64,000 nucleotides of DNA from an uncultured Clostridia bacterium (GCA_934274515.1 CAKQTC010000012.1:3723-67722), one strand, 5' to 3'; shown: positions 3,030 through 28,141, counted from the first letter of the stretch. The notes: generated from the letters alone by a model not told the origin. Program-made: numbers and translations.

Positions 3030-3031
3030 AA

Positions 3032-3370: not shown

Positions 3371-3435
3371 GAAAAACACTTAATCGCTGCGGCTTAGTCA
3401 CATAAGCCGTAGCTTATTAAAACAGGAGGATAAAT

Positions 3436-4515: not shown

Positions 4516-4527
4516 TGAGGTGACATT

Positions 4528-7165: not shown

Positions 7166-7324
7166 ATGAAAACATTCAAGAGAGTAATCGCCGTTATTCT
7201 CTTGGTGCTTGCGGTACTGTTTATCGGCTACTTCGTTTTTACAGGTAGCCGATTTTCTTTACCGATTGAAGCAACGGAAACGGCAAATTTAATCAAGGGG
7301 GTACAATTATGGAAAAGCGTATAA
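7166..7324 (+). CDS. small single-pass membrane protein (52 aa; not in the supplied ORF track)
   Basis: ATG at 7166 after aaggaggtataa; MKTFKRVIAVILLVLAVLFIGYFVFTG...; overlaps the next gene start. Confidence 0.3.
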   Translation: MKTFKRVIAVILLVLAVLFIGYFVFTGSRFSLPIEATETANLIKGVQLWKSV

Positions 7325-10692: not shown

Positions 10693-11607
10693 ATGAAATA
10701 CATAGAATGGTTAAATACTTGGCTCAGCATTTATGTTAAGCCTACGGTAAAATCACAAACGTATATGCGGTATGAACATATAGCGAAAACTCACCTTGCA
10801 AGAGGGTTGGGTGAATATGAATTAGACGAGCTTTCGGCATTGCTATTACAAAAATTTGTCGTTAGCTTATCGGAAGAAAAACATTTGGCAAGCAATACGG
10901 TAAATTCCATAATTACCGTTATTCAAAAGTCACTCCAAGTGGCAGTAAATGTCGGTGTAGTAACGGCTGAATATTCAAATAAAATTCAACGCCCGAAAAC
11001 AGTAGAAAAAGCGGTGGAAAGTTTTAGCGAAAAAGAACAAAAAGAGATTGAGGCATTTGTATTGAAAAATCAGAAAAATAGTAAACTTTTCGGAATAATT
11101 TTATGCCTATACAGCGGACTGCGTATTGGAGAATTGTTGGCGTTAAAATGGGAAGATATTGATTTTTCAAGAGGAATTATGACTATTTCGAGGTCGTGTC
11201 ACGACGAATACAAGGATGGGAAATTGCTTAAAGTATATGATACTCCGAAAACGAAAACTTCCATAAGAACGATACCTATTCCCAAGCAGATAATTCCGCA
11301 CTTAAAACAAATAAAAAAGAAATCGGATAGCGAGTATGTTGTCAGCGACAAAAATGATATAGGCATAAGAAGTTATCAAAAGACGTTTGAGTGCATACTA
11401 AGGAAATTACATATTCCCCGTAAAGGCTTTCACGCTCTCCGCCACACCTTTGCCACTCGTGCGATAGAATGCGGAATGGATGTAAAAACACTGTCGGAAA
11501 TTTTGGGACATAAAAACCCCGAAATTACTCTAAAACGTTATGCACACAGTATGCTTGAACACAAGGCGGAAATGATGAATATCGTCGGAAAGAAGCTGTT
11601 TCAATAG
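10693..11607 (+). CDS. tyrosine site-specific recombinase (304 aa, no arm-binding domain)
   Basis: N-terminal SAM-like core-binding domain; catalytic signatures GLRIGELLALKWEDID, HALRHTFATRAIE, LGHKNPEITLKRYAH. Confidence 0.85.
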   Translation: MKYIEWLNTWLSIYVKPTVKSQTYMRYEHIAKTHLARGLGEYELDELSALLLQKFVVSLSEEKHLASNTVNSIITVIQKSLQVAVNVGVVTAEYSNKIQRPKTVEKAVESFSEKEQKEIEAFVLKNQKNSKLFGIILCLYSGLRIGELLALKWEDIDFSRGIMTISRSCHDEYKDGKLLKVYDTPKTKTSIRTIPIPKQIIPHLKQIKKKSDSEYVVSDKNDIGIRSYQKTFECILRKLHIPRKGFHALRHTFATRAIECGMDVKTLSEILGHKNPEITLKRYAHSMLEHKAEMMNIVGKKLFQ

Positions 11608-11617
11608 TGTTGAATTA

Positions 11618-11646
11618 TTGCAAAAAGACAAGGATTATGGTATAAT
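11618..11646 (+). promoter_or_regulatory. sigma-70-type promoter for the KilA-N gene
   Basis: TTGCAA (11618-11623), 17 nt, TATAAT (11641-11646). Confidence 0.5.
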
Positions 11647-11674
11647 ACAACTAGCATTTGTATAGGAGTTTTTT

Positions 11675-12487
11675 ATGTCAACCAAAGAGATAATAGTAAA
11701 GGGAATCGACGTTAGATACAACAAGATCAATAACGAGGATTTTATATGTCTTACCGATATTGCCAAAGCAAAGAATCCCGATCATTCCGGTATAGTTATA
11801 ACGCATTGGCTTAGAAATTACTCGACGATAGAGTATCTCGGTTTGTGGGAGACGTTACACAATCCCGATTTTAATGTAACCGAATTCGGTAACTTTAAAA
11901 ATAAGTCCGGAGAAAATTCTTTTGTGTTGACGGCACAGGATTGGATAGATAAAACAAACGCTGTCGGGCTAATATCAAAGAGCGGGCGCTACGGCGGGAC
12001 ATATGCTCATAGAGATATAGCTTTTAAGTTTGCGAGTTGGATTTCGGTAGAATTTGAATTGTATTTAATTACCGAATTTCAAAGATTGAAAGTTGAAGAA
12101 CAAAAAGAACTCGAATGGAATGCAAAACGTGAGCTCGCCAAGCTCAACTATCACATTCATACCGATGCAATTAAGGAAAATATCGTTCCGACTTTGTCCG
12201 AAGAACAGTTAAAATATGTCTATGCCAACGAAGCGGATGTTCTGAACGTGGCGCTGTTCGGAAAAACGGCGAAGGAGTGGCGTGACGAAAATCCGGACAA
12301 GAAGGGCAATATTCGTGATTATGCTTCTGTGGAGCAATTACTTGTTATCGCAAATATGGAGAGCTATAACGCTATTTTAATAGAGCAAGGCGTGCCTCAA
12401 AGCGAACGCTTAAAACAGCTTAATATTATGGCAAGGAACCAACTGAAAATTTTTCAGAATCAGGATATGAGTCGGTTCATAGATTAA
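11675..12487 (+). CDS. KilA-N domain-containing protein
   Basis: N-terminal pattern IIVKGIDVRY...DFICLTDIAKAK...WLRNYSTIEYLGLWE...GRYGGTYAHRDIAFKFASWISVEFELYLI is typical of KilA-N family proteins. Confidence 0.7.
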   Translation: MSTKEIIVKGIDVRYNKINNEDFICLTDIAKAKNPDHSGIVITHWLRNYSTIEYLGLWETLHNPDFNVTEFGNFKNKSGENSFVLTAQDWIDKTNAVGLISKSGRYGGTYAHRDIAFKFASWISVEFELYLITEFQRLKVEEQKELEWNAKRELAKLNYHIHTDAIKENIVPTLSEEQLKYVYANEADVLNVALFGKTAKEWRDENPDKKGNIRDYASVEQLLVIANMESYNAILIEQGVPQSERLKQLNIMARNQLKIFQNQDMSRFID

Positions 12488-12512
12488 AAATTGTCAAAAC
12501 GCGCAATTTTTG

Positions 12513-12540
12513 AAAAACGGTAGAATTTTCTACCGTTTTT
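12513..12540. terminator. bidirectional rho-independent terminator
   Basis: acggtaga/tctaccgt 8-bp stem with a 4-nt loop, A-run upstream and T-run downstream. Confidence 0.6.
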
Positions 12541-12583
12541 GCATTTTTTGACTGTTTTCAAACCGTTTTTTCGTGCTAAAAAA

Positions 12584-12611
12584 AGTTCATCAATTAACAT
12601 AATTTATGAAC
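12584..12611. repeat. left 28-bp inverted repeat (IR-L) of the candidate invertible promoter
   Basis: agttcatcaattaacataatttatgaac is the exact reverse complement of 12723-12750. The repeat is internally quasi-palindromic (GTTCAT...ATGAAC), like a recombinase core site. Confidence 0.9.
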
Positions 12612-12623
12612 CATTACACTTTG

Positions 12624-12652
12624 ATTGTATTTAATAATATAATGTTTGTCAA
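12624..12652 (-). promoter_or_regulatory. near-consensus sigma-70 promoter inside the IR-flanked segment, pointing away from the giant gene
   Basis: The minus strand reads TTGACA (12652-12647), a 17-nt spacer, then TACAAT (12629-12624). Confidence 0.55.
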
Positions 12653-12722
12653 CATTTTACCGATAAAAAATACAGCAATTAGTTCATTTTTCTCCAGATT
12701 TATGAACCGGCGCCTTAATTTA

Positions 12723-12750
12723 GTTCATAAATTATGTTAATTGATGAACT
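12723..12750. repeat. right 28-bp inverted repeat (IR-R)
   Basis: gttcataaattatgttaattgatgaact matches the reverse complement of IR-L at 28/28 positions; lies 40 nt upstream of the giant gene start codon. Confidence 0.9.
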
Positions 12751-12790
12751 AATAATAAACGCAAAATTCATCAATCGGGAGATGTGAAAT

Positions 12791-15700
12791 ATGAAAAAAT
12801 TCGGTAAAATTATGGTGGTTATAGGCTTGCTTTCAATGGTGATTGTTGCTATGGTAGCCTGTAACGGATTCAAGGTAGGCATTAGATTTATGGTAGACGA
12901 CGAGGTTTATCGTGAATTTAAAACAACCGGCAGCGAGGTTATCGAAATGCCCGAAAGTCCGACGAAAGAAGGATACGTTTTCCGTGGTTGGTTTTTTGAC
13001 CCCGGAATATGGCAACAGCCGTTTACGGTAAATTCGTTCCTCGATCAGCCGATAAGCGATATAATTTATATTCACGCTTATTTTATTACGCAGGAAGAAG
13101 CGGACAGCATTAAGACGGTGACGTACAACGCTATGGACGGTAGCGCGGTCGACAGCGTAGAGGTAAAAATAGGCAACAGGCTTTCCGAACCGACGACTCC
13201 GACAAAAGACGGATATATTTTCATAGGCTGGTTTACTACAGCCGATTTTGCCGAAAAGTGGAATTTCACGTCCGGCATAGTCAATTCTGATATAACGCTT
13301 TATGCAAAGTGGGTAGAGGATATCCCCGAAAACCGTACTTACACCGTCGCGTTTAACGCTAACGGCGGAAGCAGCGTCGATAATTATACCGAGATCGCCT
13401 ACAACGCGCTTATCGCAAAGCCTCTCAACCCCGAAAAGGACGGCTACGCGCTTGCAGGCTGGTACACCGACAATACCTTTGCAAAGGAATGGAATTTCGA
13501 ACTCGATAAAGTAACTGATAATATAACTTTGTACGCGAGATGGGAACAAGCCGACGTCACCGCTTGCAGTATTATCAAAAGCGAGGGCTTTAATAAAATC
13601 GAAAACGACGGCGAAATCGAATTGTATATAAAGGTTCCCAACGCACAGGAAAAATTCTCTTTCCTAAATAAAATAGAAGTAAGCCCCTTTGCCTCTTGGA
13701 AAGTAGTCAACGACTTACAAGGAAAAGACGAGGTGCCGAGCGGGACTGTGGAAATATCCGTCGGCGATAACGTAAAATACATACTTGTGACGTCCTATGA
13801 CGGAACACACAAAAAGTTTTATAAAGCGACCGTTAGACGCAGACCTATGTATCAAGTGTCCGTCAATCCGAACAACGGCGAAGATATCGACGTTATGACC
13901 TTGGAAGAGGATTCTTTAATCGACGGCGATTATTTAAGGAAAGGTTATATAATAGATAAATTTATATATATAGAAAACGAAGAAGAAAAAGAATGGAATA
14001 TAGCGGAAGACGTCGTAACGAAGAATATTTCCATTGACGTCGTTTGGAGAGCGGCAAACTATTCCGTGACTTTCGATTCCGACGGCGGTAGCAAAGTCGA
14101 AAACGCGGAGATAGACTATGACGGGGAGTTCTCTTTCGGAGTCCCCGAAAAACTCGGATACGATTTTGTCGGTTGGGCTTATAACGATATTCTCATAACC
14201 GACGGACAGGGTAAAGGTCTTGCCGTTTGGAACATAGACAAAGAAAAAATAGAACTGAAAGCCGTTTGGCAAGCGACGGTCTATTCAGTTTCTTACGGCA
14301 ATTTGAAAGGCGCAACAAATACCAATGCCGCAAGTTATACTATCGAAACGTCCGTTACTTTTGCGGATATAGCCCAAGAGGGATACACCTTTATCGAATG
14401 GCAAGACGAAAAAGGCGAAAAAATAACGGAAATATCCGAAGGAAACACGGGCAATAGAACGATAACGGCGGTATGGAATTTGATAGGATATAAAGCGACG
14501 TTCAAAGCCGACGGCGCAGTCTTGTCGGTCGTTGATTTCAACGTGGAAACGGAACAAGTAACCGAACCGACTATCCCCGAAAAAACAGGATATACGCACG
14601 CATACGAAGAATATTCTTTCGTTGCTCGCGATATTACCGTAAATGCCGTCTATACTCCCATAGTTTACACCATTACTTACGCCAACGTAAGCGGAAATTA
14701 CGATATAGACGCGCCCGTAAACGGCAACCCGACAACGTATACTATCGAAACCCCGACGATAACGCTTCAAAATGCAAGCAAATCGGGATATACTTTTGCA
14801 AATTGGACTGTCGGCAATGATGCAATAACGCAAATTCCTCTCGGCTCTTACGGAAATAAAACGATAAAAGCTAATTGGAACGCTATCGAATATAAGGTCG
14901 CTTTCGTTATGGAAAATGCCGACGGAGAGTACGAAGGACACTACGAAAGCGAAGAAAATCCTACGACTTACACAATCGAGGACGCGTTTACCTTTATAGA
15001 GCCCGTTTGCGATATCCTCGGTTATGATTTCAAAGGCTGGTACACTACGAAAAACGAAGAAGGTGTAAAAGTGGAAAAAATCGGTGCGAAAACTACCGGC
15101 AATAAAACGTTCTACGCACAGTGGCATAGGATTGACTATACCATTAATTACGTAGGCGTGGACGGCGGCTACAACGACAATCCCGATACATACAACGTCG
15201 AATCGGACACCATCACTTTGGATAATCCGACCAAAAACGGTTATACTTTTGTAGGTTGGTTCACCGACGAGAGCAAGACCGTTGCGGCGACGCCGATTGC
15301 TACGGGAAGCGTCGGCAATCTTACGTTCTTTGCTAAGTGGGATATAATAACCTATACCGTTACTTACATACTTTATGACGGCACGAACGACGCGAGCAAT
15401 CCGAGCAATTACAATATAGAGAGCAACCTTGCTCTAAAAAATCCGACGAAAGAGGGCTATAGCTTCGGCGGTTGGTTCACAAACGCAGACTTTAACGAAG
15501 AAATTAAGTCCATTGCGCCCGGAATGAGCGGCAGCCTTACCTTATACGCAAAGTGGTACTATGTCGGGACGATTACTTTCGTGACCAACGGCGGCAGCGC
15601 GATAGCTCCCGTTACGCAGGAATACGGCACGGCTATTAAAAAACCCGCCGACCCGACCAGAAATTATTACACCTTTGACGGTTGGTACGAGGACAGCGAT

Positions 15701-18700
15701 TTTGGCAAAGTCTATACTTTCGGCGCAATGCCCGATAAGGATTTCAACGTATACGCCAAGTGGACTCCCGTCGAATATACAATAAGGTACGTTCTCGGCG
15801 AGGGCGCACAAAACAGTAAAAACAACGTCGCCAAATACAACGTCGAGACGGTATTTACCTTCGAAGCGGCGGAAAAAGAAGGGTACTCCTTCAACGGCTG
15901 GTTCACCGACGACAAATTCACTACTGCGGTCGTAAGCGAAATAGTCGCAGGCACGCACGGCGATATGACTCTGTATGCCAACTTTATAATCAATAAATAT
16001 ACTATTACGTTTAATACCGACGGCGGTAGTGCGGTTACGGAAATAACCCAAGATTTCCACACCGTGGTAGATAAACCGGCTGATCCCTTTAAGACGGGAT
16101 ATGATTTTGTCGGTTGGTACTCCGACGTAAATTTGACCAAAGCGTATACCTTCGACAGAATGCCTGCAAAAGACTTCACGCTTTACGCTAAATGGAATCT
16201 CGTAAACTATAAAATAGAATACAATTTATCCGGCGGCACTAATAATAGTAGCAATCCGTCTTCGTATACCGTACTGTCGAATACCGTTACTCTCGGCGCG
16301 CCGACAAAGAAAGGCTATACTTTCGCCGGGTGGTATAAAGACGGCGGTTATACCGAAAGTTTCGTCTCCATTCCGAGCGGTAGCTACGGCACGGTAGCGG
16401 TGCATGCAAAATGGGAGATTATTACCTATACCGTTACTTATGTGGGAATAGACGGCTTGGACAATGAAAACCCGACGACGTATACCGTCGAGGACGCAGT
16501 GACTTTCGTCGAGATAGCTAAGATCGGATATACCTTTGACGGACTGTTTAAAGAAAGTGCATTTATCAATACGGTAAGCGGCATACCGCAAGGCTCCGTC
16601 GGCAACGTTACCGTGTACGCAAAATATACCGTCAACACCTATACCGTCTGGATAGACGGCAAGGAAGAAATGATATATACCGTGTCATTCAATCTCAACG
16701 GAGCAGGCGGCGATATCGCTTCGCAGGTGATAGAAGAGGGAGTAAGCCTTACCTATCCGATGGTACCGACAAGAAGCGGCTATATCTTCGGCGGTTGGTA
16801 CGAAAAAGAAGATTGTTCGGGAATGGCTTACGACTTTACGCAATTCGTTTTGAAAAATACCGTTCTTTACGCTAAATGGATAGCGACGAGCAATTCTACC
16901 GTAAATATCGGCGATACGCGCGAGGTAAACATCGACGGAACGAAATACTTTACTTACGATTTCGTGCCTCTCGTCAGCGGCAACGTGACTTTGGCTACGA
17001 CGGGCAGCGTGGATACCTTTGGTTATCTCTATGAAGAGGACGTCCTCGTGAAAACCAACGACGACGGCGCAACCGACAGCAACTTCGTAATCGTCTACAA
17101 CGTCACCGCAGGCAAAAAATATACCGTCAAATTCCGTGGCTACGGCAAGGGGAATACGGGAAGCGCGACCTTCCATATAAGCGGATACAATACGGTAAGC
17201 GAAGGCGGTACCGCTATATACGGCGGCAGTACGGCAGAGCTTACTTTCGACGCTCCGTTTACTTTGACCGTTCCTGCCGAAAGAGACGGCTATGTCTTCA
17301 GAGGCTTCGTCGACGAAAACGGTACGTTCTATACCGACGATAAAGGCAAAAGTATAAAAAATTGGGACAAGGGCGAAGACTCGGCCATGTTCTCCTATTG
17401 GGAGGTAGACGGCTTCAAAATCAATTTCGTCACCAACGGCGGAACGGCTGTCGAAACGGTTACGCTGCCCAAAGGCGCTCGCGTAAATATCAACAATTAC
17501 GTTACGACGAGAAGCAACTATTCTTTCCTCGGTTGGTTCCTCTCCGCAAGCGATAGCGATAGCTACAACGCTAGCGTAATGCCCGATAGGGATATTACGC
17601 TGTACGCAAAGTGGACGGCTTACGCGCTCAACGCCATTAAATATGACGAAACGTTAAAGGCTATCCCTGCCGAGGGCGACCTCACCGCCGATTATTTCGG
17701 CGCGACGTGCTTCGATAACGGCGGCAATCAAGTAGAGGTTACTGCCTCCGCTAGCACAAGAACCGTCGGCGCAACCGCTACCGTGAGACTTACCGCGACG
17801 AATGAAGGAAAGACAAAAACCGCTACCGTCTCTGGCGTCAAAGTCTACGGCGAGCCTACGCTTGCTTTCGATAATACGGTAAACTATGTTAATCTGAAAG
17901 ACGGTTTTCAAGCAAGTTGGTTTACAGCAAGCGGAACCGACACCTTCGACGCGGCTACCGAAATAAGGGTGAGAGTAGACGGCGAATATAAAGCCGGCGA
18001 TATAGTGACCGTAATTATAGAGTCCGTCGATATAGCCGGCAATATTAAGAGCGGAACTGTAGAAAACGTCAAGCTCTACGGCTTGCCCGTGATTACGCAC
18101 AATGAAGAGAAAAATGAAATAAGCGTAAACGATACGATAGACGCAAGCTTGTTTAACGCAACCGCTACCGACAGCTTCGGCGAAAGCTTGACGGTAACGG
18201 TAACGAAGAAGAGCGGAACAATATCAGCGGGCAATACGATTACTCTTACCTTTACCGCTACCGACGGCAAAGGCAACGTAATGACGTTCGATAAGGATGT
18301 CAAAGTGTACGGCGCGCCGACAATCTCCGACGCTGAAAAGACGGAATTTAAAGTCGAGGACGAAATAACGGTAGATACCCTCGGACTTACCGCAAATGAC
18401 ACTTTCAACGGACAGTTGGATATCACGCTTACCGTAAAGAGCGGAACGCAAACGGCAGGAGTTACGATGGTCTTTACCGCTACCGTTACCGATATAAGCG
18501 GCAACGTGACCAATAAGGATATATGGGTAAGAATCTATGGTACGCCTACCATAACGTATGATAGAAATGCCCTTAAAACAACCGAAGATCCGACGTTCTC
18601 AAGCAAAGAAGCTACTGTCTCGTTTAATCTTAACGGCGCAAGCGGAACTGCGCCCGCAAGCCAAACCGTCACCGATACGGTAGGGCTTGAATATCCGGCA

Positions 18701-21262
18701 ATTCCGACAAGAGACGGTTATGTATTTAAAGGTTGGTACACCGATTCCGCTTGCAGTACGTTGTTTGACTTTAGCAAAAACGTAGAAGAAGATATGACGG
18801 TATATGCAGGTTGGGTATCTTACAACGGCGCCGGGTATATTGTTTACAACGGCAGTAAGTCGGTAAGCGTTATTTCCAAATCTTCGGCAGGTTCGAATTA
18901 TGACTACGCATTCGTACCTCTCGTCAGCGGAACGGTGACGATTTACAGTACGGGCAGTCTCGATACTTACGGTTACCTGTACAGTAGTACAAAATCGCAA
19001 CTCGCAACCGATGATGATGGCGGAGACGGAAGTAATTTCCAAATTACTTATTCAGTGACGGCAGGAACTCTCTATTATATCCGTCCTTGCGGATATGACG
19101 GTAGCGGCAGCACTACCGTTTATGTCAAAGGCAATATGCCCACGGCAGGCGGAAAAGGATCTAAAATTATTTCCGGTGCAAAAGATTATCTCAACGCTAT
19201 GGCTACCGATAGTTTCGGCAATCCGCTTATGGTGACAGCTGTCTTGAAGAGCGGCGAATCTGTAGGCGGAAAGTACGCGACGTATACTCTGACCGCGACG
19301 GACAAACTCGGCAACGTCGCTACCATAAATACGGCGGCTATCCCCGTCTATGACAGAGCGGAGATAGAAATGACTTACGATCCGTTCGGAACGAATAGCA
19401 TAAAATACAATTCCGCAGGAGAAGAGTTTAACGCAGTCGCCACCGACAGCTTCGGAAACGCTTGCGTAATAACGATAGAAAAAGCTGACGGCGGCGCGAT
19501 TGTCGCAGGACAAACTCAAAATATCGTCATCGTCGCTACCGACCTTGCCGGGAATAGATATTTAAGCGATTCGATAGCCGATATCAAGGTCTACGACATG
19601 CCGACGATTGCTTACGCGCACGATTACCTCTACGTTACGGCTGGCGACAATATCGACTTTATGTTTACGGCAAAAGATAGCTTCGGCGAGGAGATATCTG
19701 CCGAAGCGACTAAGGTTAGCGAAACGGCAGATATCTTGACGGTAAAGGTGACGGCTACCGACGACGCGGCTAATAAAGCGGAAAGAGAATACGAATTGAT
19801 AAAAATAGCTTCGGGCGAATCATATCTTGCGCTTATGTTCAACGGCGAACAAATCGGCTATGCAAAGGTAACGAACGGAGCAAATTATGAATTACCGCAC
19901 GAGTTTACCGGCTATACCTTTATCGGTTGGTATTTAGATAGCGCCAAGCTTACGGGTAGCGACGGCGAAAGCCTGTCGACCTGGGATAAGCCCGATGGCT
20001 ATTACGTCCTTACCGCTTCGGCTACCATAATCAACTATAATATAACCTACGTCCTTAACGGTGGAGAAAACTCAAGCAACAATCCCGCGACGTTTACCGT
20101 CAACAATCTTGGTTTTGCGCTGGAAAATCCGTCTAAAGTAACCGAAAAAACCGTTCTTCCATTGGAATATATTGTCGACGGTACGTTCCGTCAAACGGTA
20201 AGACAGATCGCGTATACCTTCCTCGGTTGGTACACCGACAGCGATTGGACAAATACGATATCAACCGTCTCTTCCGTCGGCAATATTACGGTCTACGCCA
20301 AATGGAGCGAAACTACCTCTGCTACTATTACTACTACGATATCTGCCTATATGCGCGAAGGAAGCTATATCTATTTCGGCTCCTATCCGCAGACGCTCGT
20401 AAGGGACAGCGCGCTCTCTTCTGCTTTGGGTTCATACAGTTCTAACACGTGGACAAGTTACGGTTATTATAAAAACGGAAGCATAAGCAATTATATGTAC
20501 TACACCGACAAGGAATATAACGGTGAAAAGTACAGAGGAGTTTACTTTACCGAAAAGAGACCGTATTATACAACAGGTTCGAATATAGGTAGTACGCCTA
20601 ACAATTGGGCATACGATATAGTAAGCAGTAGTAACTATAAAACATACAATACGTCCACCGTATATTGGTTCAAATACGAACCTATTAAATGGAAGATAGT
20701 AAAAGAGCAAAGCGGATATGCGACGTTGGTAGCCGATCTCATTCTCGACAGTCAGAATTATTATATAAGCGATACGACAAGTCAAACGACGAGAACCGAC
20801 TATCAAGGCAACAGTGCAAGCGCATACAGTAACAACTATCAATACAGCACGATAAGAACGTGGCTAAACGTTACTTTCTACGAGACGGCGTTTACCGATT
20901 TGCAGAAAGCGTTAATTCAAACCACAACTGTAGATAACAGCGTATCGAGTACAGGATATAGTAGTAACAACTATGCCTGCGGCAACACTAACGACAAGAT
21001 ATTCTTACTGTCCTATCAAGAAGCAAATACATATTTCGGAAGTAATAGCGCAAGGCAAAAGAAGAGTACCGACTACGCAAAGAGTCAAGGACTGTGGACA
21101 AATACCGATAGTTACTTAGGCAACGGTTATTGGTGGCTTCGTTCGCCTAACTACTTTTATAGCTACCCCTCGCGCCGCGTCGACCGCGACGGGTCGTTCG
21201 ACTCCATTGGCGTCAATTACACTATGGTCGGGGTTGTGCCCGCTTTGGTGATAAGGCTGTAA
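12791..21262 (+). CDS. giant surface lipoprotein (2,823 aa) and DGR target protein: about twenty Listeria-Bacteroides-type repeats, Ig-like repeats, two PPC-like domains and a C-terminal C-type-lectin-fold variable domain
   Basis: Lipobox signal MVVIGLLSMVIVAMVAC; reiterated GY.F.GW....(F/W).....TLYAKW units; repeated ATDSFG...TATD...VKVYG.PTI units; C-terminus GYWWLRSP...GVVPALVIRL overlaps the VR. Confidence 0.85.
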   Translation: MKKFGKIMVVIGLLSMVIVAMVACNGFKVGIRFMVDDEVYREFKTTGSEVIEMPESPTKEGYVFRGWFFDPGIWQQPFTVNSFLDQPISDIIYIHAYFITQEEADSIKTVTYNAMDGSAVDSVEVKIGNRLSEPTTPTKDGYIFIGWFTTADFAEKWNFTSGIVNSDITLYAKWVEDIPENRTYTVAFNANGGSSVDNYTEIAYNALIAKPLNPEKDGYALAGWYTDNTFAKEWNFELDKVTDNITLYARWEQADVTACSIIKSEGFNKIENDGEIELYIKVPNAQEKFSFLNKIEVSPFASWKVVNDLQGKDEVPSGTVEISVGDNVKYILVTSYDGTHKKFYKATVRRRPMYQVSVNPNNGEDIDVMTLEEDSLIDGDYLRKGYIIDKFIYIENEEEKEWNIAEDVVTKNISIDVVWRAANYSVTFDSDGGSKVENAEIDYDGEFSFGVPEKLGYDFVGWAYNDILITDGQGKGLAVWNIDKEKIELKAVWQATVYSVSYGNLKGATNTNAASYTIETSVTFADIAQEGYTFIEWQDEKGEKITEISEGNTGNRTITAVWNLIGYKATFKADGAVLSVVDFNVETEQVTEPTIPEKTGYTHAYEEYSFVARDITVNAVYTPIVYTITYANVSGNYDIDAPVNGNPTTYTIETPTITLQNASKSGYTFANWTVGNDAITQIPLGSYGNKTIKANWNAIEYKVAFVMENADGEYEGHYESEENPTTYTIEDAFTFIEPVCDILGYDFKGWYTTKNEEGVKVEKIGAKTTGNKTFYAQWHRIDYTINYVGVDGGYNDNPDTYNVESDTITLDNPTKNGYTFVGWFTDESKTVAATPIATGSVGNLTFFAKWDIITYTVTYILYDGTNDASNPSNYNIESNLALKNPTKEGYSFGGWFTNADFNEEIKSIAPGMSGSLTLYAKWYYVGTITFVTNGGSAIAPVTQEYGTAIKKPADPTRNYYTFDGWYEDSDFGKVYTFGAMPDKDFNVYAKWTPVEYTIRYVLGEGAQNSKNNVAKYNVETVFTFEAAEKEGYSFNGWFTDDKFTTAVVSEIVAGTHGDMTLYANFIINKYTITFNTDGGSAVTEITQDFHTVVDKPADPFKTGYDFVGWYSDVNLTKAYTFDRMPAKDFTLYAKWNLVNYKIEYNLSGGTNNSSNPSSYTVLSNTVTLGAPTKKGYTFAGWYKDGGYTESFVSIPSGSYGTVAVHAKWEIITYTVTYVGIDGLDNENPTTYTVEDAVTFVEIAKIGYTFDGLFKESAFINTVSGIPQGSVGNVTVYAKYTVNTYTVWIDGKEEMIYTVSFNLNGAGGDIASQVIEEGVSLTYPMVPTRSGYIFGGWYEKEDCSGMAYDFTQFVLKNTVLYAKWIATSNSTVNIGDTREVNIDGTKYFTYDFVPLVSGNVTLATTGSVDTFGYLYEEDVLVKTNDDGATDSNFVIVYNVTAGKKYTVKFRGYGKGNTGSATFHISGYNTVSEGGTAIYGGSTAELTFDAPFTLTVPAERDGYVFRGFVDENGTFYTDDKGKSIKNWDKGEDSAMFSYWEVDGFKINFVTNGGTAVETVTLPKGARVNINNYVTTRSNYSFLGWFLSASDSDSYNASVMPDRDITLYAKWTAYALNAIKYDETLKAIPAEGDLTADYFGATCFDNGGNQVEVTASASTRTVGATATVRLTATNEGKTKTATVSGVKVYGEPTLAFDNTVNYVNLKDGFQASWFTASGTDTFDAATEIRVRVDGEYKAGDIVTVIIESVDIAGNIKSGTVENVKLYGLPVITHNEEKNEISVNDTIDASLFNATATDSFGESLTVTVTKKSGTISAGNTITLTFTATDGKGNVMTFDKDVKVYGAPTISDAEKTEFKVEDEITVDTLGLTANDTFNGQLDITLTVKSGTQTAGVTMVFTATVTDISGNVTNKDIWVRIYGTPTITYDRNALKTTEDPTFSSKEATVSFNLNGASGTAPASQTVTDTVGLEYPAIPTRDGYVFKGWYTDSACSTLFDFSKNVEEDMTVYAGWVSYNGAGYIVYNGSKSVSVISKSSAGSNYDYAFVPLVSGTVTIYSTGSLDTYGYLYSSTKSQLATDDDGGDGSNFQITYSVTAGTLYYIRPCGYDGSGSTTVYVKGNMPTAGGKGSKIISGAKDYLNAMATDSFGNPLMVTAVLKSGESVGGKYATYTLTATDKLGNVATINTAAIPVYDRAEIEMTYDPFGTNSIKYNSAGEEFNAVATDSFGNACVITIEKADGGAIVAGQTQNIVIVATDLAGNRYLSDSIADIKVYDMPTIAYAHDYLYVTAGDNIDFMFTAKDSFGEEISAEATKVSETADILTVKVTATDDAANKAEREYELIKIASGESYLALMFNGEQIGYAKVTNGANYELPHEFTGYTFIGWYLDSAKLTGSDGESLSTWDKPDGYYVLTASATIINYNITYVLNGGENSSNNPATFTVNNLGFALENPSKVTEKTVLPLEYIVDGTFRQTVRQIAYTFLGWYTDSDWTNTISTVSSVGNITVYAKWSETTSATITTTISAYMREGSYIYFGSYPQTLVRDSALSSALGSYSSNTWTSYGYYKNGSISNYMYYTDKEYNGEKYRGVYFTEKRPYYTTGSNIGSTPNNWAYDIVSSSNYKTYNTSTVYWFKYEPIKWKIVKEQSGYATLVADLILDSQNYYISDTTSQTTRTDYQGNSASAYSNNYQYSTIRTWLNVTFYETAFTDLQKALIQTTTVDNSVSSTGYSSNNYACGNTNDKIFLLSYQEANTYFGSNSARQKKSTDYAKSQGLWTNTDSYLGNGYWWLRSPNYFYSYPSRRVDRDGSFDSIGVNYTMVGVVPALVIRL
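21125..21247 (+). other. DGR variable region (VR), in frame at the C-terminus of the target gene
   Basis: 123 nt homologous to the TR at 21821-21946. The flanks are identical and the internal differences fall almost only at TR adenines. Confidence 0.85.
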
Positions 21263-21271
21263 AACAGCCTT
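21253..21271 (+). other. hairpin immediately 3' of the VR (DGR cruciform-like element)
   Basis: aaggctg-taaaa-cagcctt, a 7-bp stem, starts 5 nt after the VR end and spans the stop codon. Confidence 0.5.
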
Positions 21272-21396
21272 AAATCACCGTTAATCACGGCGAAGCAAAA
21301 TCATCGGCAAGGGGAAGAAACGGCGTTTTGCGCCCTTCCCCGAAGCCGTAAAGGGCGATTGAAACCGCGTAAGCGGTCGAAAAATTTTTTGATAAA

Positions 21397-21774
21397 ATGC
21401 AAAAGAAAAACGACCTATTTGTAATAACAAAAACAAAAGATATAGCTAAGTATATAATAACGGTGACGGAAAAAAGCCCGAAAAAGTTTCGTTATACGCT
21501 AACGACGAAATTGCAGAATTTTGCATTGGACGCGCTGGAATATTTGTATTTAGCCAACACCGAGAGTTTGGGGGAGAAGAGAGAGAATTTACAAAAGGAG
21601 GCGAGAACAAAATTATCTTTATTAGACTACTTTGCCGGACTTGCCGCCGAACAGGAATGTATACTTTTTAAGCAATATGAGTTTATTTCGAAAGAAGTCG
21701 CTTCGGCAATAATGTATCTCGACAAGTGGAGAGCAAGCGACAAAAAAAGGGTATCTACGACGGTATCGTCGTAA
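21397..21774 (+). CDS. avd: DGR accessory variability determinant (Avd-like four-helix-bundle protein)
   Basis: 125 aa, helical, basic; lies between target and TR as in canonical DGRs; sequence pattern ...KYIITVTEKSPKKFRYTLTTKLQNFALDALEYLYLAN... is typical of four-helix-bundle Avd proteins. Confidence 0.7.
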   Translation: MQKKNDLFVITKTKDIAKYIITVTEKSPKKFRYTLTTKLQNFALDALEYLYLANTESLGEKRENLQKEARTKLSLLDYFAGLAAEQECILFKQYEFISKEVASAIMYLDKWRASDKKRVSTTVSS

Positions 21775-21820
21775 TGATATAAGTGAAGCGTTATTAACAA
21801 AATGCGTTTTCGCTATTTGC

Positions 21821-21946
21821 GGTTATTGGTGGCTTCGTTCGCCTAACAACAATAATAGCAACAACGCGCGCAACGTCAACAACGACGGGTCGTTAGACAA
21901 CAACAATAACGTCAATAACACTAATAACGGGGTTGTGCCCGATTTG
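21821..21946 (+). other. DGR template repeat (TR)
   Basis: 126 nt built from runs of AAC/AAT codons (conceptual translation GYWWLRSPNNNNSNNARNVNNDGSLDNNNNVNNTNNGVVPDL); matches the VR ends exactly. Confidence 0.85.
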
Positions 21947-22151
21947 TTTCTCACTCGTATTGCTATGGCAAGCGAGGAAGAACGGTAAAGAGGCTGAGGT
22001 AAGTACCTCATGCACAGTACTCGAAACAAAGGAACGCTTCACTTTCCCGTAGTGCAATCTGCGGGAAAATCAACCGGCGGACGGCGCGACTTAGGAAATA
22101 ATTTGCGCCCGTGAGTAAAATCCCGTCGGTTTTTTTAATGGAAAATGTAGA

Positions 22152-23243
22152 ATGATTAAAATGCAAGAAAGTACTTTTGACGAAATAATATCCTTTGAGA
22201 ATTTATATAAAGCGCACCGCAGGGCGAGATTAGGCAAGCGGCATAAAAAAGAGGTTATTGAATTTGAGATGAATCTTTCGGAAAATTTATGGCAGCTTCA
22301 TTATGACCTCAAATACGGAAGATATCAAATAGGCGGCTATCACAAATTTATGATATACGACCCGAAAGAAAGGGAAATACAAGCGATATCGTACCGTGAC
22401 CGAGTAGTCCAGCATACGCTTTGCGACAATTTTCTTATACCTCTTATGGAAAGGAAGCTGATTTACGACAACGGAGCGTGCCGCAAAGAAAAGGGCACGC
22501 ATTTTGTTATCGGAAGATTGAGAAAATTTATGACCGAACATTATAAAAAATACGTTACGTCGGGATATTTTGTCAAAATGGACGTTAAAAAATATTTTGA
22601 CAGCATAGATCACAATAAACTTAAAAACTTACTAAATAAAGAAATAGCCGAAGAAAAAATCAAGAAACTCGTATTTTCCGTAATAGACAGTTATTGTTTT
22701 ATCGAAAATAAGGGACTGCCAATGGGCAATCAGTCTAGTCAATGTTTTGCGCTTTATTATTTGGATGAGGTTGATAGATTTATTAAAGAAAAGCTAAAAA
22801 TCAAATATTATATTCGTTATATGGATGATATGATTGCGATAACTCCCGACAAAACAAGCGCAAACTTATGCTTGGAAGCGGTTTCCGAAAAGTTAATAGA
22901 AAAGAATTTGCAAATGAATGTGAAATCGCAAGTGGTTGCTATAAAAAACGGCATTAATTTTTTAGGATGGCATTTTCGATTCGGAGAAAACGGAAAAATA
23001 TTGCAAACCATACGGAAGCAATCTTTATTAAGAATGAAAACAAAACTAAAAGAAACGATTTTGCTTTTAAAAAAACATAAAATTTCGAAGAAGAGATTAA
23101 TACAATCGCAAAACAGTCTTAAAGGACATCTCGAAAAAGGCAACGCTTACAAAATCTTAAACAATTTGATTAAGGATTTTATAATTAATAAAAGTGTCCA
23201 TAAAAATTATATCAGTCTCTATAAAAAAGCCCAGACTCCGTAA
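22152..23243 (+). CDS. DGR reverse transcriptase
   Basis: RT motifs: PKEREIQAISYRDRVVQH, FVKMDVKKYFDSIDH, GLPMGNQSSQCFALYYL (DGR-type SQ motif), YIRYMDDMIAI (YMDD). Confidence 0.85.
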   Translation: MIKMQESTFDEIISFENLYKAHRRARLGKRHKKEVIEFEMNLSENLWQLHYDLKYGRYQIGGYHKFMIYDPKEREIQAISYRDRVVQHTLCDNFLIPLMERKLIYDNGACRKEKGTHFVIGRLRKFMTEHYKKYVTSGYFVKMDVKKYFDSIDHNKLKNLLNKEIAEEKIKKLVFSVIDSYCFIENKGLPMGNQSSQCFALYYLDEVDRFIKEKLKIKYYIRYMDDMIAITPDKTSANLCLEAVSEKLIEKNLQMNVKSQVVAIKNGINFLGWHFRFGENGKILQTIRKQSLLRMKTKLKETILLLKKHKISKKRLIQSQNSLKGHLEKGNAYKILNNLIKDFIINKSVHKNYISLYKKAQTP

Positions 23244-23263: not shown

Positions 23264-23587
23264 TTAAGCTAAAACATTTCTATCGGGTATGTAAATATGA
23301 TCGCCAATAGATATTGCTTTATACTTAATGCCGTCTTGTTCATAGGTTGTATAAGTAGGCTTGCCTTTTATCTCGTTCCGAAGGAAAAAGACGTTTGCGT
23401 CATATTCGACTTTACCGACATTTCCTTCAAGGAATTTTTCGTCGTTTCCTACCTCGATAATTTTGAAGCCTTTCTCTATTAGCGCTGCCGAAAATTGCCA
23501 TAGCTTTTGAAATTTACCGTTTGAGTCGGCAAGCATCGTAGCGTCGAGTTCGGGGTGATAAGCTGTAATTCTAAAATAGTTTGACAT
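23264..23587 (-). CDS. hypothetical protein (107 aa)
   Basis: ORF with RBS (caaaggagaaattattATG on the minus strand); last gene of the minus-strand array; convergent with the RT gene. Confidence 0.45.
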   Translation of the reverse strand: MSNYFRITAYHPELDATMLADSNGKFQKLWQFSAALIEKGFKIIEVGNDEKFLEGNVGKVEYDANVFFLRNEIKGKPTYTTYEQDGIKYKAISIGDHIYIPDRNVLA

Positions 23588-23605: not shown

Positions 23606-24922
23606 TTAAGCCGCTATTTTTTTAATTGTTTTGTTTGCGTAAGGTAGCCATACTTTGTTTATAAAATTGGCTGTTTGCTCGTCCGGCATACAGTTATATA
23701 AGCCATGTGTTTGCAGTATTTTATGTTCTGCCGGTGAATATTCAACGGTTATATACGGCTTTTCTATTTGGTCTTTGATACGAATAAAGAATATTAAACT
23801 ATCTTCCCTAATAAATTTTTGGTCGTAACCCATTTTCCCGACGCAATGATGCAATTCTTCGCCTTCCCGGAAAAGCTCTTGCGGAGATTTTGCTATGATA
23901 CATACAAAGTTGTAATTGCCGTCATATTGCAAGGCTTTATATTTATCGGCGACCTCTGCGAACATTGAATATAATTCCTTTTGTTTTAATACATCTAACT
24001 TAGCCTTAGCTGTTTTTTGTTCGTCAATGCGAATATCGTGCCACCTCTTAAAATCGTGAGGGAAGAGATTTTTATTCTCATTCATATTTAATTTTAGATA
24101 GTTGCAAGCGACAACATAATCGTGATAAGAGGACAAAGATATATGGTTTGCTTTAAGAAATTTTACAAGTTTATACCTATCTATCTTAGGAACTTCTCGC
24201 AGAACTAATTTATATGTAAAATCGTGTGCATATTCGAGCAATAGTTCTTTATTCGCTTGAAGGGTTTTCAACGGTTTACCCGTCTTGTACGATTTTATGA
24301 TTATATCAACGTAGTAATAATTCTTCATTAGTTCCTGTTTATGTTGCAATAACCATTTAGGAAAATTCTTGTCTTTTTGAATTTGTTTCAGTATTGTTTT
24401 GCTCATTGCAATTTGATTTAGACCTGCTTTGACAAGATATTCGATAAAAGGATATTGTTCGTACAGGCGAAGATATTGAATAACGTCTGTCTTTGTTTGT
24501 AGTTCAACGGCGCTGTAACGATATGCAGGCAGTTTTTGAAGATAGTCGAAATTTACGACTGGAGCGTACATATCGAACATTCTGTCATATTGCCAGCCCC
24601 ATTCTTTGTCCTCGTACCATTTAGGGTATTTTGATAATCCTTCCTCATACCATCCGACACGATAACCGGCGAGTCTGGTATATAGCATATCTTTAATAAA
24701 GCATCTATCGCTATGTATCCCATGTATTGCACACTGTTTGTAATACCACTTTTTGCTTCGATTTCTTACGGCAACCGTAACCTTAACAAGCTCGCCGTTG
24801 TTTTTGGTTAGGTAAGAGTAGTATCTTGTTGATTTATCTTGGTCGGGATTATCTTTTAAGTTTGTCTCTTTTATTCTTTTTATTATGTACTTAGGTACAG
24901 GTTTTATTTTTGATATTTGCAT
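23606..24922 (-). CDS. PcfJ-like protein
   Basis: C-terminal [16 protein letters not shown]... region resembles the PcfJ domain. Start moved to the ATG at 24922 (gaggtgaaacaATG), not the track start at 24988. Confidence 0.6.
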
Positions 24923-25857
24923 TGTTTCACCTCGATGTCCTTGCCAAAAAGGGCAAGTAATTTGTTTAGAATGATTAGATCGGGACAATTATTTATTTCT
25001 CCCTCGTCGTCCATAATCGGCTCGTTTATATCGCCGTAGAACTGCTGCATTTCTTCTTCGGTCAATTCTTCGATTTCTTCTTCGGACGGAAGGATTTCTA
25101 CTTCTTCGGAATTTTCGGCAACTGCGATTTTGAAGCCTTTATCTAATAGCTTCTTGAAGTAATTGTCGGTAGCGTGATAGGGAATACCGCACATAGGAAC
25201 ACGTTTTTCCAAGCCGCAATCTCTACTTGTAAGAGTCAATTCAAGTTCTCGTGAAGCAGTTACCGCCGAGTCGGCAAAAACCTCATAAAAATCGCCGATA
25301 CGCAGGAATAAAATGCAGTCGGGATATTTGCGTTGTAAATCAAGATATTGTTGATACATAGGCGACGGCTTTTTAGGCTCGGCAATAGGCGTAAATTCCG
25401 TTTTAACGGACTCAACGGGTGTAGTTACTTCTTCTTCCGTTAAGCTGTCGAAAAGGGATAATTGACCCGTATCCGATTTTTTGGGTTTAGGTGTTGTAAC
25501 AACGGGCGGAGTAGTGGAAGTAGGTATCTTCTTCGGAGCAGGCTTATATTCCGTACCGTCAAGATTAAATAATTTACCTTCGATACTATCTTCTTCAAAA
25601 TAGTGCATAGCCCATCCGAATACGACTTCATCTTCTACGCAAGCACAATTAGCGCCCTTTTCGGCTAACTTTCTTGCTTCATCGCTTGCATATTTCATAA
25701 AGCCGGAAAGTGTTTTCTTTGACAACAACTGCTTTCCGTTTTTTTCTATCTGAACGCCGTTATTTATTTTTTCGGCGAGATACTCCGTAGCGTTTTCTTC
25801 CAGATACGCTTTGAGTATTTCCTGCTCTTTTGTTTCTGTTGCTAAGTTTATTTGCAT
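24904..25857 (-). CDS. PcfK-like N-terminal domain fused to a MutS domain I (mismatch-binding) homologue
   Basis: N-terminus ...[10 protein letters not shown]...[19 protein letters not shown] is PcfK-like. C-terminus [34 protein letters not shown]...[29 protein letters not shown] matches the MutS N-terminal domain, including the GDFYE mismatch-contact motif. Confidence 0.65.
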
Positions 25858-25859
25858 TT

Positions 25860-26117
25860 TTAATTCTCCTTAATTGAAGAAAGGTCATCCGAGAACGGAC
25901 AACCTTTCCATAGTTTTGTATATTCTTTAAGCGTTCTGACTTCTTTAACTTCCCATTCCGGTTTACGGAGTTTAGACGGCGGCTCTCTTTCATACCACCG
26001 AATATGCCATATAGCGGAACCGAGTCTGTTTGTTACGAGATATACCTTAAATTTTGATTTGCCGTATTCTCGGTAACAAACTTTATACCCGTATTTATTA
26101 TTTGTTTCCATAGGCAT
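25860..26117 (-). CDS. hypothetical protein (85 aa)
   Basis: Co-oriented ORF overlapping its upstream neighbour by a few codons. Confidence 0.4.
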
Positions 26118-26304
26118 TTTCCTTTATTATTCCGTAAACATCATCTGCGTAAAATTCGCAGGTAAACCAGTTAAAAATGGCGGTGCATTTCACACCGCCG
26201 TATTCAACTATGTATTGATTGTCACCTTGCTTTTCCAACATGGTTATTTCATCCATTTCCCCGTGCTTGCTGTATATATGTGCCATTACCTTGTATGGTT
26301 TCAT
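26098..26304 (-). CDS. hypothetical protein (68 aa); truncated paralogue at 62949-63086
   Basis: RBS ggaggtaacctaatATG; N-terminus MKPYKVMAHIYSKHGEM matches MRPFKTMAHINSLGGKM at the second locus. Confidence 0.45.
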   Translation of the reverse strand: MKPYKVMAHIYSKHGEMDEITMLEKQGDNQYIVEYGGVKCTAIFNWFTCEFYADDVYGIIKENAYGNK

Positions 26305-26318
26305 ATTAGGTTACCTCC

Positions 26319-26720
26319 TTAAAATGTTCTGACAAGTCCGCCGAATTGCATCTTTATCCCGATGCTTCCGAATTCCGAGCAAGTATCGTCGCTTACGTTT
26401 ACTACATAAGAGCAGATATAACCGCTTTTCAGGTCATCACGGTCATATTCCCATTCTTCTCTATACTTGGACACATAGAGTAGAGAATACAATTCTCCAA
26501 ACTCGGTATAGTTGTGAATAACGTGATAGACGGCTGCGCCGTATTCGGCTTCGAAAGTTCTAACCATTTTCTGTTCCTTTTCGTCCAGCCAATAGAGTAT
26601 TCCGCCGTGTTCCGACTTGTTGATGACGTCCTCTTCTTCAAATTCCTTAATTACTTGTGGATAGAGCTTGAGGGTTTTCATTCTTTTGATAGCTTCTTGT
26701 TTTTGTGTAGTTCTTTGCAT
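26319..26720 (-). CDS. hypothetical protein (133 aa); paralogue at 63098-63505
   Basis: Collinear similarity to the second copy (KQEAI.RMK.LKLYP..IKEFE....GG.LYWL....VYHVIHN.TEFGE...EEWEYDR.DLK.GY...SDD.CSEFG...QFGGLVRT). Confidence 0.5.
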   Translation of the reverse strand: MQRTTQKQEAIKRMKTLKLYPQVIKEFEEEDVINKSEHGGILYWLDEKEQKMVRTFEAEYGAAVYHVIHNYTEFGELYSLLYVSKYREEWEYDRDDLKSGYICSYVVNVSDDTCSEFGSIGIKMQFGGLVRTF

Positions 26721-26740
26721 TGTTTTTATCTCCTTTATGA

Positions 26741-27154
26741 TTAAATGTAGTCTTGTAGTGTTTCGAAGTTCAGCCCGACGTTTCTAAGTGTTTCTTCAAA
26801 GCCGAACCAAGCGAGTAAATTTTGGTTATATACGTCGTTTCCGAGCGGGTCTTCTTTATCCCATTTATCGCCAAATAGTTCTTTCATAGAATAAATTCCG
26901 GTCTGCTCCATAATTTCATATAATAGGGTGTCGACTTCTTGTTTGTGTTGTTTGTAAAATCTAACCGTATCGCAGCAATAAATAAGGAAGCCAACCGTTC
27001 CCGATTGGCATCCATAATGTAATACGTCTGTAAATATATGTTTTTTATCGTCATAATCATTCCATTTATCTAAAACATAGTTACAGACTCTTTTAGTGAT
27101 TTTACTTTCCGTTTCTTGTTTGATTTTAGTAATGTTTGATTTCGTGAGCTTCAT
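26741..27154 (-). CDS. hypothetical protein (137 aa); paralogue at 63525-63935
   Basis: Shared block DDKKHIFTD.LHYGCQSGTVGFLI....TV.FYK.HK.E.D.LLYE.ME.TG...ELFGDK.DKEDPL.ND.YNQNLLAWFGFEET.RN.G. Confidence 0.5.
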   Translation of the reverse strand: MKLTKSNITKIKQETESKITKRVCNYVLDKWNDYDDKKHIFTDVLHYGCQSGTVGFLIYCCDTVRFYKQHKQEVDTLLYEIMEQTGIYSMKELFGDKWDKEDPLGNDVYNQNLLAWFGFEETLRNVGLNFETLQDYI

Positions 27155-27546
27155 TCGTCCACCCCCGAAAATTGAGGATTGTTTTCACATTCGACTATAT
27201 CGCATTCGCCGCAATCACCCATACAAACATTGGCTCTGTCGCATTGGGTAAAGAATTTGCAATTTTGACAATATAGCTTGCTGTCTTTCCGACAAACGTG
27301 TTTTTCTTCTTCTACTTCTTCTTCCTTAAAATCGTTTACGGATATTTTCTTATACTCGCATCCATATTCGAAGTAGTACCCGTTTGTATCTGTCATTAGG
27401 TCATATTCTTTAACGGAAACCTTTCCTTGATATGACTCGACAACGGTTATTGTTTTTCTATCGCTGTTGAGGTCAACGATATTGAAAGTGACGAAATCTT
27501 CACCATTAAAATATTGAAATTCTTTTAAGTAGTATTTGTGTCTCAT
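27151..27546 (-). CDS. hypothetical protein with Cys-rich C-terminal tail (131 aa); partial paralogue at the window end
   Basis: C-terminus CRKDSKLYCQNCKFFTQCDRANVCMGDCGECDIVEC; the mid region GYYFEYGCEYKKISVNDF matches the partial ORF at 63937-64000. Confidence 0.45.
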   Translation of the reverse strand: MRHKYYLKEFQYFNGEDFVTFNIVDLNSDRKTITVVESYQGKVSVKEYDLMTDTNGYYFEYGCEYKKISVNDFKEEEVEEEKHVCRKDSKLYCQNCKFFTQCDRANVCMGDCGECDIVECENNPQFSGVDE

Positions 27547-27565
27547 AGTTTTTATCTCCTTTGCT

Positions 27566-27835
27566 TTATTCTGCGAATTTGTACCAGATGTAGTAATTGA
27601 TTTCTACGTCGTGCCCTTCGTATTCGGTAAGTTCGAAGTAAGCACCTTTGAATTCATTTTCCGTTCCGATTATCGGGTGACAATCTTTAACGCAGTCGTA
27701 AATTCTTATATACGGCTTGTTGTTTTTGCTAATTCCTGCTGTGATTAGCTCTTCATCGGTGATGTATCCGACACCGGTATATTTGGTGTTTTCTTTCTTA
27801 CCGATCCTTGTGATAGAGTAGATTACCTTCTTCAT
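27566..27835 (-). CDS. hypothetical protein (about 89 aa), first gene of the minus-strand array
   Basis: Start moved to the ATG at 27835 with RBS tggaggtatttaagaaaaATG; the track start at 27895 lies inside the hairpin arm. Confidence 0.45.
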   Translation of the reverse strand: MKKVIYSITRIGKKENTKYTGVGYITDEELITAGISKNNKPYIRIYDCVKDCHPIIGTENEFKGAYFELTEYEGHDVEINYYIWYKFAE

Positions 27836-27846
27836 TTTTCTTAAAT

Positions 27847-28141
27847 ACCTCCAAAGTGAATTTTTTGCCTTTCGGCAGGAAGGGCTAAGGACCACTGCTC
27901 AAAAGCCTGAATTTTTCTTTATATAGGTCAACGGCACAGGGGCAAAGGAAAAAGCGAGAAAATTTTGCGTTCAAACATTGGCTTTTATATGAATGCAGTC
28001 AACATTTAGGGGATATAGGCTTAACACATTATGAAAACAGTCATACCACTTCGAAAGTAAAGCAAAAATTTATCGCCCTTTGAGCCTGCTTTTAGCTGTG
28101 GTACAACGACATTCCGAAAGGCAAAAAAGACTCTTGGAGGT
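27847..28141. repeat. long imperfect inverted repeat (about 300-bp hairpin) upstream of the small-gene array
   Basis: acctccaa (27847-27854) pairs with ttggaggt (28134-28141). ttttttgcctttcgg (27861-27875) pairs with ccgaaaggcaaaaaa (28114-28128). Further interrupted pairing (accac, gct, aaaagc) extends inward. Confidence 0.6.

Follow-up and report, generated by a model that had tools for sequence, protein, structure and literature searches.

The question raised by one gene of an uncultured Clostridia bacterium is what a mismatch-recognition domain, cut off from the remainder of MutS, does on mobile DNA, and whether it serves the diversity-generating retroelement (DGR) beside it. The gene (24904..25857, minus strand) was identified in a stretch of 64,000 nucleotides (GCA_934274515.1, CAKQTC010000012.1:3723-67722; hereafter the window, to which all positions refer unless a contig or locus is named). 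Its product, named PcfK-MutS_I here, has 317 amino acids and a net charge of -23, and the gene is separated by 1661 bp from the end of the reverse transcriptase (RT) gene of the DGR. It belongs to a widespread operon with a PcfJ-like gene, while the adjacency to a DGR is particular to this one element. Judged from its sequence, the protein is predicted to be non-enzymatic and to consist of three parts, a PcfK-like head, a MutS domain I and, between the two, a linker carrying a putative clamp-binding motif, with an acidic tail after them.

MutS domain I is complete and occupies residues 161-256 (25090..25377, minus strand, as are all parts of this gene). Pfam analysis placed PF01624 at residues 166-255 (E=3.9e-30, 104.8 bits against a gathering cut-off of 20.6), and residues 11-95 of Escherichia coli MutS align without gaps to residues 165-249. 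In this alignment F190 and E192 correspond to F36 and E38 of E. coli MutS, the Phe-x-Glu mismatch-contact motif, which lies within the sequence GDFYE (residues 188-192, 25282..25296). GDFYE is invariant in 35/35 diverse family members, each 38-59% identical to the window protein. An AlphaFold model built from 35 homologs shows two confident globular domains, a low-confidence linker between them and a poorly ordered acidic tail with a terminal helix. The domain I part of the model (predicted local distance difference test, pLDDT, 95-98) superposes on mismatch-bound MutS domain I with a root-mean-square deviation of ~1 Å over 82 columns, and Foldseek returned MutS domain I matches at E about 1e-8.

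The globular N-terminal domain (residues 1-110, 25528..25857; pLDDT 96-98, or 88 when modelled alone) matches the Pfam domain PcfK (PF14058) at residues 25-93 (E=9.5e-9, 35.9 bits against a gathering cut-off of 27) as well as phrog_7445. The Pfam match is partial, covering only profile positions 12-73 of 139, and the fold has no significant relative in the PDB (best E 1.8) or BFVD (best E 0.55). A probably disordered linker follows (residues 111-160, 25378..25527; pLDDT 51-64), Pro/Thr-rich at residues 115-127 and acidic. The acidic C-terminal tail (residues 257-317, 24907..25089) has a net charge of -12 and ends in a modelled amphipathic helix (residues 292-307). It also contains the motif EEMxxFDGDI (residues 268-277, 25027-25056), which was counted in 107/202 two-domain members of the family and loosely resembles the acidic C-terminal tip of bacterial SSB, yet is internal and not terminal.

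Pfam analysis of the 317 residues detected none of the domains MutS_II-V (connector, lever, clamp, ATPase), and the MutS equivalog models TIGR01070 and PRK05399 were matched over positions 2-90 only, with 114-118 bits against cut-offs of 480 and 641.7, so that by both measures the protein lacks the architecture of a full-length MutS ATPase. The original prediction, which was made from the sequence of the window, had described a MutS domain I with GDFYE, a PcfK-like N-terminus, a Pro/Thr-rich linker between the two halves and no connector, clamp or ATPase domains. Profile searches, alignment and modelling agree with it on each of these features, both domains scoring above their gathering cut-offs.

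A feature that the original prediction lacks emerged from the linker. Otherwise unalignable in the 35-member alignment, it holds one nearly invariant string, Q-x-S/T-[LMI]-F-D, of which Q132, F136 and D137 are the nearly invariant residues in the window protein. Here the string reads QLSLF (residues 132-136, 25450..25464), a predicted motif for binding the beta sliding clamp. The published clamp-binding consensus is QL[S/D]LF, with positions 1, 4 and 5 critical; QLSLF itself is the motif of Bacillus subtilis PolC, which binds the clamp DnaN at 3-7 uM, and the motif of B. subtilis MutS is QLSFF. Among 270 family proteins fetched, 234 contain Q-x-[ST]-[LMIF]-F, where shuffled sequences would give 2.6; the motif has its median position at 127 and lies within the linker of low pLDDT. 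As in other clients of the clamp (PolC, Pol IV and the Y-family, MutS, MutL, Hda and the transposases of insertion sequences), the consensus pentapeptide lies in a flexible region and is conserved among homologs at positions 1, 4 and 5; the difference is that the carrier is a mobile-element protein, for which clamp binding is predicted from the motif.

The MutS of the same genome (884 residues, in the usual miaB-mutS context) contains exactly one such motif, at residues 842-846, and it is also QLSLF. Hence the element protein copies both targeting features of the host MutS, the clamp pentapeptide and the mismatch-recognition head, and none of its signalling machinery. It differs from bacterial MutS (TIGR01070/PRK05399) in lacking domains II-V (connector, lever, DNA clamp, ATPase and dimerisation), in the place of the clamp motif, before domain I and not after the ATPase, and in having a PcfK-like head and an acidic tail and being encoded by a mobile element. 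As domains II-V are missing, no sliding clamp state and no recruitment of MutL would be expected of it.

The reading that we favour, as a tentative one whose chance falls somewhat short of even, is that PcfK-MutS_I acts as a clamp-tethered, signalling-dead look-alike of MutS on replicating element DNA. The linker peptide would dock on the host DnaN clamp on newly replicated DNA, in the cleft used by host MutS, and this tether would take the place of the DNA-clamping domains of MutS. This may allow domain I to insert Phe190 and Glu192 where DNA is mismatched or otherwise irregular. Occupying both the clamp site and the lesion, the protein would not trigger repair, because the connector, lever and ATPase domains needed for signalling to MutL are missing, and it would shield element DNA from mismatch-provoked processing; alternatively, it may bring the PcfK head and a basic PcfJ partner to such sites. 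The mismatch-binding decoy of the original prediction is in part upheld in this way, if indirectly, by the conserved QLSLF shared with host MutS, by the invariant Phe-x-Glu and by the lack of signalling domains; the dedicated DGR role that it also considered is not.

The second of these possible outcomes bears on the operon in which the gene lies. The next gene (23606..24922, minus strand) was predicted to be PcfJ-like and does match PF14284 (E=1.1e-28). By gene call it encodes 438 amino acids and overlaps the PcfK-MutS_I gene by 19 nt; computed on a 460-residue frame with a TTG start, its product has a net charge of +24 against the -23 of PcfK-MutS_I, and no sequence relative of it was found in the PDB. 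The two are near-obligate neighbours (23606-25857), and the overlap of the genes together with the opposite charges suggests that the two products form a complex. Six small co-oriented genes (25860..27895, minus strand), one of them encoding a DUF7222 protein by Pfam (26741-27154), precede the pair in the same operon, and a gene of 107 codons (23264..23587, minus strand), whose product has no Pfam, PHROG or NCBIfam match, closes it.

This order of small genes, PcfK-MutS_I, PcfJ and a gene of roughly 100 codons was compared with 114 independent loci drawn from species-representative genomes, metagenomes and exact-protein look-ups. In 89/90 of the loci with enough sequence the next gene downstream is PcfJ, the last gene has a homolog in 81/114, and the same small upstream genes recur across related loci. 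Operons of relatives also carry ArdA, DUF4314 or DUF6809. A word-index search gave 6334 matches, of which the best 120 are nearly all of 320-365 residues with both Pfam domains; the full architecture forms roughly 100 clusters at 50% identity. Of 300 genomes of the class that were sampled, about 28 (about 9%) have extra copies of MutS_I. Other assemblies contain an identical protein flanked by the same genes, and a scan of viral contigs with the PcfK-MutS_I protein gave no relatives.

Such near-obligate linkage to PcfJ, with overlapping genes and opposite charges, would also be expected if the protein were a targeting adaptor, a possible explanation that stands nearly level with the decoy. The clamp motif and MutS_I would then serve only to bring the PcfK head and its basic, co-translated PcfJ partner to element DNA that is replicating or irregular in structure (hairpins, for example, or nicked intermediates of rolling-circle replication), for the purpose of establishment, replication or protection and with no intended effect on host mismatch repair. 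The element encodes a rolling-circle replication (RCR) Rep, and Iyer et al. (PMC5512222) proposed that the MutS-I domains of mobile elements recognise short single-stranded DNA features of the entering or replicating element. Further in its favour, the clamp motif is common to a wider PcfK-like family: of 68 relatives that lack GDFYE as an exact string, the majority of them matching in the PcfK-like N-terminal part only, 50 have it, and all 58 short relatives scanned match PcfK. The motif is therefore part of the PcfK module and not a design specific to a mimic of MutS, which favours MutS_I being an added targeting module. Against the adaptor, no activity of PcfK or PcfJ that might be delivered has been identified, and the retained Phe-x-Glu together with a clamp motif identical to that of host MutS fits competition with MutS at least as well.

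Besides the distribution of the clamp motif, several points weigh against the clamp-tethered look-alike. The protein is strongly acidic (-23, with a family median of -30), an unusual property in a protein that binds DNA, and one that might instead point to mimicry of a protein or of DNA, or to autoinhibition. Nor is domain I, in isolation, known to bind mismatches well. What an element that integrates site-specifically would gain from blocking mismatch repair is not obvious. Finally, dnaN was not found in the host assembly, a metagenome-assembled genome of 111 contigs that is 95.6% complete, nor was a true dnaA, for which only a weak sub-threshold match was obtained. Since dnaN is present in 7/8 congeners and dnaA is undetected too, the absence of dnaN is attributed to a gap in the assembly, from which the origin region appears to be missing.

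The PcfK head offers a further explanation. PcfK of Enterococcus faecalis plasmid pCF10 represents the family PF14058, which includes the Cas9 inhibitor AcrIIA9, and resembles the window protein in its N-terminal domain and in its pairing with a PcfJ-like gene; it differs in that the match is partial and that the window protein has an extra MutS_I. An anti-CRISPR of the AcrIIA9 type, in which the head inhibits Cas9 and the other parts are auxiliary, would agree with the PcfK domain that Pfam finds in AcrIIA9, with ArdA in the operon of relatives and with the acidity of the protein. It is nevertheless very unlikely in this host, as a search of the 95.6%-complete genome gave no Cas9 (TIGR01865); the PcfK match is in addition modest, and the invariant mismatch motif and conserved clamp motif would be left unexplained. 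A broader role in anti-defence or DNA entry, also raised by the original prediction, would fit the operon context, the ArdA of relatives and AcrIIA9 as a member of the PcfK family.

MutS domain I has been reported on mobile elements before. Iyer, Burroughs, Anand, de Souza and Aravind (2017, PMC5512222) described polyvalent proteins, stated to be its sole carriers other than MutS, and PcfK is unmentioned there. As in the window protein, a MutS domain I was captured by a mobile element, in Firmicutes and Bacteroidetes, with a role predicted on entering or replicating DNA. The polyvalent proteins differ in being giant and multidomain, about 80% of them with ArdC-N, whereas the window protein is compact, with two Pfam domains only in its 317 residues, no ArdC-N, a PcfK head and a clamp motif, and is not one of them. 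Giant proteins of polyvalent type with an embedded MutS_I were seen in the phage-collection records L125, L127, L128 and L130, those of L125, L127 and L128 being true polyvalent examples; close to the N-terminus of the L128 protein there is also a QLSFF motif. The literature gave no paper that connects PcfK, MutS-I and a clamp motif.

The origin of the domain was addressed with a tree of 87 columns only, in which GDF[YF]E was the selection criterion and is thus present in every element domain sampled. Domain I sequences of the host MutS proteins of the class form a tight, supported cluster with a median identity of 79%. Domains from elements fall outside this cluster and, with a median identity of 44%, evolve fast; support for their monophyly is weak. 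A recent capture from the present host was considered and rejected, the window domain being only 55% identical to domain I of its own host's MutS and the element domains grouping apart. The MutS_I domains of the Bacteroidetes polyvalent proteins (L125, L127) cluster with a Bacteroidetes MutS with 100/100 support, and these sequences suggest that the domain was captured independently in two phyla.

Does the protein serve the DGR? The retroelement (12791..23243, plus strand) is complete. On the plus strand it comprises a bAvd-like gene (21397-21774), a template repeat (TR, 21820-21946), a variable repeat (VR, 21124-21247) that differs from the TR at TR adenines, and the RT (22152-23243), which is 35% identical to Brt of Bordetella phage BPP-1. 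Its target is a giant protein of 2823 amino acids with Flg_new repeats and a DUF6273 C-terminus carrying the VR.

There is precedent for a DGR accessory factor that binds the mismatch-dense heteroduplex of cDNA and VR and guards it from host MutS. An accessory class termed MSL (MutS-like, 112-283 residues) was reported in 16/372 DGRs, each of which also has avd (Wu et al. 2018, PMC5758913), and PF01624 has been reported to be enriched near DGRs. A preprint on Bacteroides DGRs (10.1101/2024.11.15.621889) describes Msl in three DGRs and shows that deletion of mutS raises VR mutagenesis 5-10-fold, host MutS thus restricting retrohoming. Like these proteins, PcfK-MutS_I is a small non-ATPase protein with the MutS mismatch-recognition domain, encoded near an avd-bearing DGR, in this case 1.66 kb from the RT. 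With 317 residues and an additional PcfK domain it lies outside the size range of the class, and it differs further in having a clamp motif and in belonging to another operon on the opposite strand.

A place in DGR cassettes that is conserved together with RT and avd, as in the MSL class, was not observed. No homolog of the RT, the Avd or the target was found in any of the 114 loci, for which 1.25 Mb of flanking DNA was searched. The RT query was sensitive: it recovered 145 phage records, with identities as low as 23%, and matched Brt of BPP-1 at E=7e-41. Conversely, neither a PcfK domain nor PcfJ was found in 80 viral loci with related DGR RTs. The PcfK-MutS_I operon is convergent with the DGR and separately conserved, relatives have defence genes in the slot taken here by the DGR, and no second DGR RT was found in the genome assembly, despite its second copy of PcfK-MutS_I. 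With 0/114 loci, 0/80 DGR loci and a single RT, PcfK-MutS_I is therefore not a DGR accessory gene, and the DGR is cargo that landed alongside. The survey that the original prediction had proposed thus gave no association with DGRs, where PcfJ adjoins the gene in 89/90 loci, and dedicated protection of DGR heteroduplexes is refuted as a conserved association and highly improbable as a role in this element.

An incidental benefit to this DGR is possible if the protein blunts mismatch repair, and is mechanistically plausible in view of the 5-10-fold restriction of retrohoming by host MutS and of the Msl proteins that some DGRs themselves encode. The stronger form of the idea, a dedicated anti-mismatch-repair factor of gut Clostridia elements that competes with host MutS for clamp and mismatch and that stands in for Msl here, raising DGR retrohoming by hiding the heteroduplex of cDNA and VR, appears unlikely.

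Proteins that may represent the true Msl type were seen elsewhere. Stand-alone MutS_I-like open reading frames (ORFs) of 132-133 codons lie 2.5-3.4 kb from a DGR RT in the IMG/VR contigs L215 (3926-4324, minus strand) and L223 (10063-10464, minus strand). Their products read FRVGIFYNI, with Phe-x-Asn in place of Phe-x-Glu, have no clamp motif and are 28-30% identical to the window MutS_I domain; they are candidate Msl-type proteins of a different family. A search for true Msl with the MutS_I domain alone returned mostly fragments at contig ends, and the three matches checked on long contigs proved to be split host mutS genes. In several Clostridia assemblies (L121-L124) the host mutS, in its miaB-mutS-mutL context, is divided into a MutS_I ORF of 105-165 codons and a remainder of roughly 605-720 codons, a division that could stem from sequencing errors or frameshifts, or could reflect real pseudogenes. 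Fragments of this kind inflate any count of stand-alone MutS_I proteins. In phage records, the MutS_I matches belonged to polyvalent proteins, to other fusions or to a true MutS, and no RT lay near any of them.

The surrounding element bears on how the DGR came to lie beside the operon. The region is accessory DNA, encoding a tyrosine integrase, a KilA-N protein, a G2P-like RCR Rep and an S24 repressor, and it ends near a tRNA-Arg gene; the mobile setting that had been proposed for the gene is confirmed by these neighbours. The operon lies at one edge of this integrative element. Directly after it is a variable slot (10693-23243 in the window), which was compared in loci L029-L037. In relatives the slot holds BrxL, Dnd-like and Abi genes, a restriction-modification system of the LlaJI type with a McrB-like AAA_5 protein, or a block of SNF2 and BrxC, while in some it is empty and Rep follows the operon directly. 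An integrase, KilA-N and a DGR occupy the slot in the element of the window only.

Beyond the slot, the backbone of the element (2748-10431) encodes proteins of 93, 112, 359, 195, 685 and 705 amino acids, followed by the G2P-like RCR Rep. Pfam, PHROG and NCBIfam gave no match for the 359- to 705-residue proteins, nor did PHROG for those of 93 and 112 residues. Each of the four large proteins is hydrophobic in N-terminal segments, and none has a Walker A motif. The backbone is conserved in L015, in L029-L031 and on contig C7 of the same genome. The end of the element was sought as an att-type repeat of the adjacent tRNA-Arg gene, and nothing above chance was found; a 13-nt inverted repeat with a T-run after the tRNA-Arg gene looks like the terminator of that gene.

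A second, paralogous pair of PcfK-MutS_I and PcfJ was identified in the same genome, at the end of contig C15 (locus L040, 2-1907). This copy has 338 residues, with QFSLF, LGDFYEVF and EEMREFDGDIYEP. Near its right end (about 63528-63935) the window contains a third DUF7222 homolog, 68% identical. Several related elements thus appear to reside in one genome of 2.2 Mb.

What is new in this analysis is the negative result for a linkage to DGRs, obtained by comparison of loci, the clamp motif identical to that of host MutS, and the picture of a cargo slot. The negative result is as useful as the positive ones, in that it warns against taking the adjacency for a sign of a new DGR accessory gene. 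Should the protein indeed dock on the clamp and occupy mismatches but send no signal, it would inhibit or re-route mismatch repair as a natural, portable factor. Its carriers are very common mobile elements of the gut, with thousands of homologs in the survey. Such an activity would bear on the establishment of mobile DNA, on local rates of mutation and recombination in gut bacteria and on the escape of DGRs from a restricting host MutS, and it would provide a first testable handle on the widespread PcfK/PcfJ gene pair.

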